Made by a program: the position numbers and the translations under genes. A stretch of 56,428 nt of DNA. It comes from an uncultured bacterium. GTDB lineage: Bacteria > Patescibacteriota > Patescibacteriia > UBA1558 > GWA2-36-10. Positions 16,971 through 24,935 of this stretch are shown one piece after another; position 1 is the stretch's first letter, and each line of letters begins with the position of its first letter. The stretch covers positions 1-56,428 of the forward strand of contig CAIRBL010000080.1 of the NCBI GenBank assembly GCA_903876815.1. The letters run 5' to 3'. The notes under the pieces were generated by a model, which had not been told where the DNA came from, ran no database searches, and worked only from the letters and a program-made list of their open reading frames with translations.

Positions 16971-19900
16971 TTATACAGCTGGCTCAATTACATAACGACA
17001 CCAAATATCATCACCAGAACCACTCCAAATAGATGCAGCGCCTGGTATCATATGTTTCCAATAAGATGGATGTACACTGCTATCCCAAGCTCCACCAGGA
17101 TGAGACGCCACAACATCATTCCAGCCTGTAATATTATAATTTGGATCAGAATTCCAAGCACCTATAGGCTGAGTATCGGTGCATTTCCATAAACCACCGG
17201 TAGCTTTGGTGGTAATACCAAAGTCATCGGGTAAACACAAACTTGGTTTATGTTGCCAATCTCCAGTTGGAGAGCCGCCGCCACTGACATACGGACCGCA
17301 TTCTTGATTCGTGGAACAAGTGTCGCCTTCTTTACCGGAGGCTGGATGTATACAAGTACCGCCGCCAGTACATTGTGCGTTAGTAGTACAAATACCACCC
17401 GCGTTAGTACCTTTATAGCAAATACTCTTACAAGTCATTTCTTGACAAGAAAAAGAGCCTATCACGCCTTTTTGACCACTTATATTATGTGCATAAAACG
17501 CAATGACATTTCTATCATTTGTCAAATCAACATCACCTGCACTAGTATTAAATTCACAAGCCCCTAAATCATCGGGAAGACCAGCGCCACTACTACAATC
17601 ATCCCAGGTGCTACCAGATTTTTTTAACACACCATTAACAAATAATTGAAAACTATCGTCAGCTAAAAATTTTGCATTTAAACCATTAATACTGCAACAA
17701 GCTGCTGTATCTGTGATAGAGCAAGAGCTACAACTAGCTTGACCAGCTATAAAACCAGCGTCCACACACGAAGCCGTTGGACCATCACAATCCTCTGGGC
17801 CATTTACAATGTGATCACCGCAATATTCTCCAGTAACACAAGTATTCCAGCTACAGCTAGAGCTATTACAATTTTGCGTGCCATTATAGCCAGCCACCAA
17901 ACAAGTTTGACTACCATTTTCACAAAACTCACCAAAATCACTTTGTACTGCCCCATCACCACACCAGCCACCAGTCAAAGCGCAATTATCATTACAATCA
18001 TATTGATTAGTTTCTCTAGCTAAAGCTGGGCTTGGGGTGATATAGCTTAAGACATCACAAATTTCTCCAAAAGAATTTTGTATCGTACCATCACCACACC
18101 AGCCACCAGTCACACGACAAGCTTGACTAGTGCCTTCTTCACCGCAAGCATACTGCAAGCTAGCGCTAGAAGCTGCCAGTGTAGCTGGCTCTATATAGCT
18201 CATTGGCTCACAACTTTCAGATGGATCATCAACGTTACCGTCATTACAAGAGCCTTCATACAAAGTACCAGCACTACAGCTAACTCTACAAGTATTACAA
18301 GATACCACACCGCCCTCAGTGCAACCAAAGCCAGCTAAACCATTTGGACTCGCTGAAGCATCACATTGTTCACCGTTACTAGCATTCCATATATGATCGC
18401 CACAAGCATTCGCTAGTGATCCATCATCACATACTGGCATACATGTATCACAACTTGGCGTACTTCCATCAGCACAGGTATAAATAAGACCACCAAAATC
18501 TATCACACCAGCTGCATCACTACGTTCACACAACTCATAAGGTCTATCTAACGTTGTATCTCCGCAGGCACCACCACACATTTGTGGCGTCAAAGCAGGA
18601 TTTGGCTCATACCAAGTGCATTCTATAGAGTCTCCAGCTGCATTCATAGAACCTGGAGGATAACAACCACCCAACTGTTCATTCCACCAATTTACATTAT
18701 ATAAATTTGCATCGCATAAATTTTGAAAACCACCATCACATTCTTCTGAGCCGTCAATAATACCATTGCCGCAATCTGGGCTAGTCACAAAACTATCGTC
18801 AGTGGGCACAGAATTACAGTATTGATTATTATTAAATTGAATTTTACTATCTACCGCTGGCTCTATATTACCAAAAGTTATACCACCAGCATCAAACTCA
18901 AAATTAGCATCTAACGAATAATCATTGACCCCTGCTTCTTTTTTATATAAATATAATAAAGAGTCTTTAGGACAATAAAAAGCATTATTAGACTCATTCC
19001 AGCAAGTCTCATCGTTGTAACCATTACATCCAGTAAATTCATTGATTGGATCTTGGCCGATAGTTTGCATGCCAATGGTCTGTGCAAATTCAGCTTGCCA
19101 AGAAGGCCATTTTGACACTGCCATACCATTGACATAAGTACCAGAGTTTAACAATGGATAATAAGGTAAACAATGACCACCATTTGGACACTGGGTATCG
19201 CTAGTACAGCTAATATTAGCGTTTGTACTACAAGCTTTGTGAATTTGACCATAAAAATCTAACTGTTTCTTGATGCTCATCAAATCAGATAAACGCTGTG
19301 TATCACGACGCAATTGCAAGCCAGCAGCATCACAAATAGGTGAGGCTAAGTCAGCACAATCAAACATACTTTCACAAGATCTGGTAGGATCAGCTGCACA
19401 ATAATTATTACTGCCAACGTTATTGCTCAAATGCAAATTCTGTACCATGGCATTAAAAATCGCTTGTGTTGATTGACGGGCGCCAATGTTGTGAGAAATA
19501 ATATAAATATTGGTATAAATCTTATTGTGATCTTTATCTAAATTAGCAGCAGCCACATAAACAGTATTACCAACTTTCAAAGCTTGATAACCATCTACTT
19601 GAAGTTCTTGTCCAGAATTAGTAGCATTTGGTGCATATTTTTTGTACCAATCTTTGACTGATAAATGCTCATTATTTGACATCACTCTCACACCTATAAC
19701 ATCTGAGCCCGAAGCCATAGCCGTCACTGTAATGACGTTAGTAAAATTTGAATTAATGGAGCCATTAAAAGCTAGAACCTTGTAGCTATAAATTTCATCA
19801 GCCACCACACCAGTATCAGTGAAACCCTCTATATCCATTGCTACTGTACCAATTTCTGACCAATCACTTGCACTGGTTTTTCTATACACTCTAAAGCCAT

Positions 19901-24935: not shown

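Follow-up and report, generated by a model that had tools for sequence, protein, structure and literature searches.

A giant Patescibacteria protein with a pilin-like N-terminus, an Ig-type stalk and a lectin-type tip: a candidate fibrillar adhesin

The giant protein and the closest described systems

We describe here the product of a single open reading frame (ORF) in contig CAIRBL010000080.1, a 56,428-nucleotide stretch of DNA from an uncultured Patescibacteria bacterium that is referred to below, in its entirety, as the window. The ORF encodes a 2654-residue protein (the giant protein) that is probably a membrane-anchored fibrillar adhesin. Described members of this class include an ice-binding adhesin of Marinomonas (PMC4083281) and a giant adhesin of Mobiluncus (PMC10619420), and the likeness lies in the giant size, the tandem stalk of immunoglobulin (Ig)-type domains and the distal ligand-binding domain. 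The giant protein differs in that a VirB2-like hairpin stands at its N-terminus in place of an LPXTG/sortase, type I secretion system retention module or autotransporter type of anchor; its stalk repeats are divergent rather than near-identical, and it contains in addition a conserved block designated Domain X and a disulfide-rich rod.

The N-terminal hairpin invites comparison with the VirB2-like pilins of type IV secretion systems (T4SS), which are present in most Patescibacteria, often as arrays (PMC12102498), and which lie away from virB4 in about 40% of the assemblies with pilin genes (PMC12102498; PMC10633639). Pilins or the pilin array are essential in the cultured epibiont Southlakia epibionticum (PMC10633639), T4SS pilins are highly expressed in Paceibacteria that parasitise methanogens (PMC10936435), and for cultured epibionts both adhesins and T4SS pilins of Patescibacteria are reported to be either essential or strongly expressed (PMC10633639; PMC10936435). 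The giant protein resembles these PF18895/VirB2-like pilins in its signal peptide, two-helix hairpin, phylum and side-by-side paralogues. The pilins, however, are small and often encoded near virB4, whereas the module of the giant protein scores below the family cut-off, is followed by a further 2530 residues and is encoded in a housekeeping locus without T4SS genes. A second family of this kind, NF045849, comprises the Mbov_0395-family pilin-like conjugal transfer proteins of mycoplasma integrative and conjugative elements (ICEs); it provides the best NCBIfam match to the module (aa 45-116), although the match is below the cut-off and the locus has no ICE or conjugation context.

At the other end of the protein, the closest described domains are those of the Pleurotus ostreatus lectin (POL; 6T0Q, 6T1D, 6KBJ) and the CBM67 domain of the Streptomyces avermitilis rhamnosidase SaRha78A (3W5M), with which the giant protein shares profile similarity including an ADD/ADN motif (PMC11512411). 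POL and CBM67 domains are beta-jelly rolls that bind sugar through a calcium ion held by two conserved Asp residues (PMC11512411). The domain of the giant protein departs from them in a 76-aa Cys-rich insert, in an apparently permuted order of segments, with the ADD half first and the W-I-W and CRY strands last, in being without a Pfam model, and in its rarity, with 24 clusters among 1.84 billion representative proteins. The Cys-rich repeats that precede it open with CG[DN]G-x(6-8)-E-x-C-D like the DUF4215/TIGR02232 Myxococcus-type repeat, and distant members of the family carry canonical DUF4215, but where the described repeat continues with DGN..GDGCS..C the giant protein has longer, variable Cys loops. 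The anchor-stalk-tip class is a known one, while the anchor type, Domain X and a CBM67-like tip that is apparently permuted and carries an insert are undescribed in the literature searched, in which we also found no description of a giant protein with a fused pilin module.

Architecture from the C-terminal tip to the N-terminal anchor

The ORF itself appears to be real and intact. Collapse or frameshift is very unlikely, since the identical 2654-aa protein is called on seven contigs, which come from three or more metagenome assemblies in ENA, colinear orthologues span 91-100% of its length, and no long near-identical DNA repeats are present inside the ORF, in which tandem repeats are trivial and the sole repeat pair, formed by adjacent Cys repeats, is 58 nucleotides (nt) long and 83% identical. 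Among the orthologues, P0002, P0004 and P0005 are 49% identical over 100% of the giant protein, P0003 (annotated as Candidatus Nomurabacteria) is 53% identical over 91%, and P0010 and P0013 are 32-33% identical over 93-100%. The single 7.96-kb ORF claimed by an earlier note on this DNA is therefore borne out. At the base composition of the window (36% G+C), a run of 2654 stop-free codons has a chance probability of about 1e-89; nothing was found in favour of an assembly artefact or pseudogene, and we regard such an origin as negligible. The protein holds 105 Cys residues, mostly in its distal half, which fits an extracytoplasmic location.

The C-terminal domain had been described from its letters as about 230 aa long, Trp- and Cys-rich, ending in WCRYVIEPAV and without a recognised motif; the composition and ending are as described, but profile homology places the domain among lectins. 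Its identification became possible because an exhaustive hidden Markov model (HMM) search with an alignment of the giants' C-termini, covering the 1.84 billion representatives, yielded compact homologues that expose the Cys-rich insert. Nine of the 24 clusters returned have E<=1e-30, all of them giants of 2225-4132 aa except for the 211-aa fragment P0114, and the rest include a few short proteins. Alignment of the compact homologues P0132, P0135 and P0125 defines a core domain of about 150 residues and shows that the giants, unlike these compact homologues, carry the insert in the middle of it. A word-indexed homologue search of the same domain gave two fragments only, and PHROGs gave no match.

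A profile in which the insert is treated as an insertion (A6) matches POL among PDB sequences with E=1.1e-17, recognising both carbohydrate-binding domains of the lectin over about 130 residues, and matches the CBM67 of SaRha78A (3W5M, residues 175-287) with E=2.9e-5. With the insert excised and only giants included (A7), POL is again the top match, at E=0.0024; the compact homologues alone match POL at E=2e-6, and hhalign links the A7 giants to the compact homologues with a probability of 99.3% and E=2.5e-20. The pair D2426-D2427 (FLADDSF) aligns with the SDD/ADD of POL and with D179-N180 of 3W5M, and the orthologues carry DD or DN at this position. On profile evidence the C-terminal domain is a POL/CBM67-type lectin domain that keeps the Ca/sugar-binding Asp pair, and the giant protein would accordingly be expected to bind sugar in a calcium-dependent manner. 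In 3W5M, P0129 and P0134 the W-I-W strand comes before the ADD strand, and in the giants, P0132, P0135 and P0125 it comes after; judged from the alignments, the two halves of the domain are apparently circularly permuted.

We note two features of the wider family. In P0122 (4132 aa), the stretch at positions 171-228 of the profile for the C-terminal domain is matched 40 separate times, so part of the second half of the lectin is used elsewhere as a tandem repeat. The compact homologues P0132 and P0135 look eukaryotic, the domain being followed in one by PA14 and in the other by SEPAKVA repeats and a coiled-coil-like tail, and the family thus includes, besides the Patescibacteria giants, the lectins of fungi and further proteins of eukaryotic appearance.

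Orthologues are colinear with the giant protein to about aa 2400 and diverge beyond this point. The lectin domain forms the tip of the giant protein and of P0005, whereas P0002 and P0004 have a lectin followed by FN3 and then DUF1554, and P0010 has a lectin followed by a long FN3 array. P0003 ends in a DUF1554-like module only, recognised by eye from its homology to the DUF1554 region of P0002 in the absence of a Pfam match of its own. P0009 ends in VWA (Pfam) and P0017 in Laminin_G_3, and in P0013 and P0014 there is a different C-terminal region that appears VWA-like by eye, Pfam reporting only FN3 and Ig there. Judged by their homologies, all of the orthologue tips are binding modules, neither enzymes nor toxins.

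The N-terminus has the layout of PF18895-type proteins, namely a putative signal peptide and two hydrophobic helices (aa 45-81 and 86-118 by hydropathy) joined by the short polar loop SSQGEADKIQKAK. The only other segment that approaches a transmembrane helix in hydropathy is a marginal 19-aa window at aa 355-373, within a Cys-rich linker. The gene immediately upstream encodes a 536-aa paralogue whose N-terminal module is 54% identical to that of the giant over 115 aa and which passes PF18895 at 30.2 bits, with a weak TrbC match as well; these are the only two copies of the module in the window. In a manual tally, about three quarters of 113 homologues of the giant have PF18895 together with TIG/Big_5 on record, and nearly all of the named homologues are Patescibacteria, which agrees with the suggestion that giants with such a module are typical of the Candidate Phyla Radiation (CPR). 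Because the paralogue passes the cut-off and most homologues carry PF18895, the module of the giant likely belongs to this family by homology in spite of its own lower score; the signal peptide and VirB2/TrbC-like hairpin that had been read here are thus supported by hydropathy and by the paralogue, and not by the Pfam threshold itself. The link from the module family to genuine T4SS pilins is weaker than family membership. A profile of 20 N-terminal modules finds no solved VirB2, TraA or TrhA among PDB sequences, only spurious matches to designed repeat proteins, and neither the window nor four orthologous loci contain T4SS genes (virB4, virB6). The paralogue, which ends in the Cys-rich tail CFNPCECSDPTSSSCVCNDPACSGANCFGEAD, adjoins every giant orthologue examined, and since this is so at four other loci the two proteins may act together.

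Between the anchor and the distal half lies a stalk, for which the domain scans were run by coordinate reference on segments of the giant protein. Most of the domain chain listed in the earlier note is borne out (TIG and Big_5 by these scans, the Cys repeats by motif), with the T4SS_pilin and fn3 matches remaining below threshold and TIGR02232 giving none. PF01833 (TIG) scores 83.5 bits over four stretches and 20.0 against a cut-off of 20.9 for a fifth, and the I.I.G..F motif occurs six times; of the six or so repeats proposed, four are firm, one is borderline and one is seen by motif only. Small Cys knots, similar to those described below for Domain X and the lectin domain, are present between the TIG domains at aa 344-367 and 753-786. 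The several Big_5 domains expected are found as PF13205 matches of 44.7 bits (two stretches) and 26.1 bits, all above threshold, and the Big_5/Ig-like region is homologous in 38-51 related giants. The single FN3-like domain is covered almost completely by the PF00041 profile (positions 2-83 of 84), its orthologues carry PF00041 on record, and the region is 38-41% identical to FN3 domains of unrelated proteins, although the giant itself does not reach the cut-off.

The distal Cys-rich segment contains seven CG[DN]G...ExC[DE] repeats by motif, where at least five had been counted. Their assignment to TIGR02232 has to be abandoned; neither this model (NCBIfam) nor DUF4215 (Pfam) gives a match, even at E<=5 on segments. 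When compared by hhalign with canonical DUF4215 repeats from distant family members, the giant repeats align over the first 17 columns only, with a probability of 92%, and we regard them as half-repeats of a DUF4215-like kind in which the Cys loops have expanded.

What had been noted as a long region with scattered Cys pairs does contain Cys knots, but it is a discrete and highly conserved unannotated domain, which we term Domain X. It is 60-63% identical in orthologues whose overall identity is 49-53%, and at least 60% of its length is covered in 55 of 136 other fetched proteins, at identities down to 30%. AlphaFold2 (AF2) modelled it from a 31-sequence alignment with a mean predicted local distance difference test score (pLDDT) of 90 and a predicted template modelling score (pTM) of 0.88. 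Foldseek with this model gave nothing significant in PDB (best E 0.14, template modelling (TM) score <=0.16) or in BFVD (best E 0.02), a Domain X profile had no match among PDB sequences, and a Pfam scan of the 31 members returned only noise in small Cys knots; the domain as modelled is unannotated and possibly a new fold. Most of its invariant residues (N, W, Y, R, G, W, W, D, P, C) are of an aromatic or structural type, and they do not suggest a catalytic site. A homologue search with the Domain X alignment found only two small proteins, P0138 and P0139, which are signal-anchored stand-alone versions of 279-343 aa whose genes lie among those for other large surface proteins. Among the species representatives of GTDB, a scan located Domain X in seven genomes, the closest at 71% identity, and five of the seven are labelled Patescibacteria (Nomurabacteria, Parcubacteria, Komeilibacteria and others).

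We also considered the second half of Domain X as the head of a type IV pilin or pseudopilin, given the motif RRDxxRLxDL...YP...DPxN...Y.Y; this is at most a tentative lead, as no tool lent it support and the loci yielded no prepilin gene for comparison. Domain X is also encoded, at 62% identity, on contig CAZXZY010000008.1 (L007), whose label reads 'uncultured Gammaproteobacteria bacterium' but which probably comes from Patescibacteria and was mis-binned or mislabelled. Domain X (aa 1904-1923, ~19167-19226) and the lectin domain (aa 2510-2529, ~17349-17408) share an inserted small Cys-knot motif, C..N...C...[NT].QC..GG.C, the two copies being 50% identical over 20 aa.

Plausible roles of the giant protein

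We favour the interpretation that the ORF encodes a fibrillar adhesin, anchored in the membrane and ending in a tip that binds glycans, on the surface of a Patescibacteria cell (Paceibacteria/Nomurabacteria-like), and consider it probable though well short of assured. The protein would be exported by the Sec pathway, with the signal peptide presumably cut after AQA, and the VirB2-like hairpin would stay embedded in the cytoplasmic membrane, its short charged loop facing the cell interior and its two ends the exterior, as hydropathy and the known topology of VirB2 suggest. Given such a hairpin, the remaining ~2530 residues would project outward, in the order of about 14 Ig-type domains (TIG, Big_5, FN3), Domain X, the disulfide-rich repeat rod and the Ca-dependent POL/CBM67 lectin tip. 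By rough estimate the Ig-type stalk would be some tens of nanometres long, and the tip would bind sugar on the envelope of another cell. Lineages could retarget the protein by swapping tips, orthologues at the same locus ending in DUF1554, VWA, Laminin_G or FN3 arrays. The data show the integrity of the gene, its domain homologies, conservation and synteny and the variability of the tip, whereas we infer the topology, surface display, sugar binding and host-attachment role; the anchor, repetitive stalk and distal binding domain of fibrillar adhesins are all recognisable from sequence alone. The proposal in the earlier note that the protein is a plausible host-attachment factor gains support from the finding that its C-terminal domain is lectin-type; if the organism is an epibiont, a host would be the expected partner.

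A number of observations weigh against this interpretation. At the anchor, PF18895 scores 24.5 bits for aa 43-112 (18.3 bits in a scan of the whole protein) against a gathering threshold of 26.6, and NF045849 scores 31.7 bits (E=8.7e-8) against a cut-off of 40; in the stalk, PF00041 reaches 18.8 bits against 25. At the tip, no Pfam model detects the lectin domain, even in its insert-free form, and bridging homologues account for part of its strong connection to PDB entries. The AF2 model of this domain is mostly beta but of moderate quality (pLDDT 65), and Foldseek places POL at the top with a non-significant match (E=0.2, TM 0.14). Lastly, because the housekeeping neighbourhood is conserved as a whole, the linkage of the giant gene to its immediate neighbours is weak evidence of a shared function.

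It is also conceivable, although we think it unlikely, that the N-terminal module is a polymerising pilin, with the giant and its 536-aa neighbour serving as minor or tip subunits of a T4SS-type (VirB2-like) pilus and the giant forming an adhesive arm on the filament. The similarity to PF18895 and NF045849, the weak TrbC match of the paralogue and the 54% identity of the modules in two adjacent genes are all compatible with this, and F-pilin offers a parallel in that its C-terminal extensions are exposed on the outer face of the pilus. But the T4SS genes are missing from the window and from the four orthologous loci, the module profile matches no solved VirB2, TraA or TrhA, and an appendage of 2530 aa on each subunit is sterically hard to pack, so that the giant could at most be a rare pilus subunit. 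Also in favour of a pilus subunit, T4SS loci of Patescibacteria include essential pilin arrays, and about 40% of the assemblies with pilin genes have these away from virB4 (PMC12102498; PMC10633639). We give about the same small credence to a structural role in the envelope or matrix, as part of a surface-layer (S-layer)-like coat, in cohesion or as a biofilm scaffold, with the lectin binding the cell's own wall polysaccharide. A core-genome position near lytR-cpsA-psr, ftsA/ftsZ and signal peptidase, conserved in proteins of 71% down to 29% identity, would suit such a component, as would the conservation of neighbouring membrane proteins with Ca-binding thrombospondin type 3 (TSP3) repeats and the high conservation of Domain X, which is of the kind expected for a self-interaction surface. 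However, the exchange of the distal tip among close relatives (lectin, DUF1554, VWA, LamG) fits a changing external target better than a constant self-ligand, and the giant, at 2654 aa and in single copy, has none of the self-assembling domains that characterise S-layers.

The variability of the orthologue C-termini, and weak TIG-based matches to RHS proteins, might also recall polymorphic toxins or contact-dependent effectors with a variable C-terminal toxic module. We rejected this candidate as highly improbable, since what varies among the orthologues is a set of binding domains (lectin, VWA, LamG, FN3, DUF1554) and not of toxins, and there are no RHS/YD repeats, no C-terminal toxin and no immunity gene in the giant or its locus, where the downstream genes are conserved rather than variable and immunity-like.

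If the giant protein is the adhesin that we favour, it would bear on the question of how Patescibacteria recognise and hold their partners, about which little is known except from a few Saccharibacteria in culture, and the locus gives testable handles for the much larger, uncultured lineages of the Paceibacteria type. An exchangeable tip on a syntenic, core-genome giant suggests that host or glycan specificity might be predicted from genomes, and the use of a T4SS-pilin-like hairpin to anchor an ectodomain of 2500 residues would be unusual. The 315-residue Domain X is of interest in its own right as the best-conserved part of the family, with a confidently modelled fold and no relative in Pfam, PDB or BFVD. 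A bolder and rather doubtful proposal has two linked parts, namely that Domain X is a new fold at the functional core of a Patescibacteria-specific surface apparatus, and that the paired VirB2-like modules co-assemble, whether or not a T4SS takes part, into a new kind of filament or membrane platform with exchangeable tips; were it correct, the core genome would encode a modular organelle for host recognition with a pilin-type anchor.

Gene neighbourhood and coordinates

Coordinates of the giant ORF, its parts and its cassette neighbours (positions in the window; strand as given)
Feature	Position	Strand	Basis or remark
Whole ORF, 2654 aa plus stop	16971..24935	-	ATG start; intact
Signal-peptide-like N-terminus, aa 1-26 (MIKK...KVFAQA)	24858..24935	-	Sequence and hydrophobic window aa 5-24; putative cleavage site
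VirB2/TrbC-like (PF18895-type) two-helix hairpin, aa 43-118, loop SSQGEADKIQKAK	24582..24809	-	HMM, hydropathy, paralogue identity
IPT/TIG array, aa ~140-750, six repeats by motif	22686..24518	-	Four firm by HMM
Big_5/Ig-like stalk, aa ~790-1545	20301..22568	-	Three Big_5 stretches
FN3-like domain, aa 1653-1737	19725..19979	-	Sub-threshold HMM, orthologue records
Domain X, aa 1738-2052, with embedded Cys knots	18780..19724	-	Best-conserved block, unannotated
Seven CG[DN]G...ExC[DE] repeats, aa 2055-2413	17697..18773	-	Motif CG[DN][GHT]...E.C[DE]
POL/CBM67-like lectin domain, aa 2414-2654	16974..17696	-	Profile homology; Asp pair D2426-D2427 at nt 17655-17660
76-aa Cys-rich insert splitting the lectin domain, aa 2496-2571	17223..17450	-	Absent from compact homologues
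Upstream paralogue, 536 aa, pilin-like module, three Big_5 and Cys-rich tail	24974..26584	-	Adjoins giant gene
272-aa membrane protein with TSP3-type Ca-binding repeats, cassette member	16123..16941	-	Downstream of giant; synteny
426-aa membrane protein with D.D.DG.. motif, no family match, cassette member	14836..16116	-	Downstream of giant; synteny

The genes of the locus are co-directional, in the order signal peptidase S26, HisRS, S21, YqeY, the 536-aa protein with pilin and Big_5 modules, the giant, the 272-aa and 426-aa proteins and YbeY, continuing with diacylglycerol (DAG) kinase, FtsA, FtsZ and NrdR. The same order is found at the loci of P0003, P0004, P0013 (32% identity) and P0017 (29% identity, 3883 aa), the exceptions being that S21 was not called at the P0017 locus and that DAG kinase is absent at the P0004 locus. 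The four genes from the paralogue to the 426-aa protein thus form a cassette between yqeY and ybeY that is conserved across Patescibacteria and has internal gaps of 6-38 nt. This conserved synteny points to a vertically inherited, core-genome gene and not to a mobile island. Just one terminator-like hairpin is convincing, and it is situated upstream, in the gap separating HisRS from S21; a promoter scan performed at chance level (48 sites against 47.5 expected).

The genes for the 272-aa and 426-aa membrane proteins are always downstream of the giant gene. Both products have long polar N-termini, Asn-rich linkers and thrombospondin type 3 repeats (D.D.DG..D), and the C-terminal ~130 aa of the 426-aa protein gave no family match.

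Elsewhere in the window, a cobalamin riboswitch (10878-11011, minus strand, 34.8 bits, above the gathering score) is situated 185 nt upstream of an ORF (8933..10693, minus strand) for a 586-aa protein with prenyltransferase/SQHop-cyclase-like and DUF4430 matches, which also follows NrdR at the P0003 and P0004 loci. We take the architecture of this protein to recall transcobalamin-like B12 binders, and the arrangement suggests B12-regulated capture of B12 in a reduced genome. Each 2-kb bin of the window shows negative GC skew, and the minus strand carries almost every ORF of at least 100 aa, which fits a single replichore with strong gene-strand bias.

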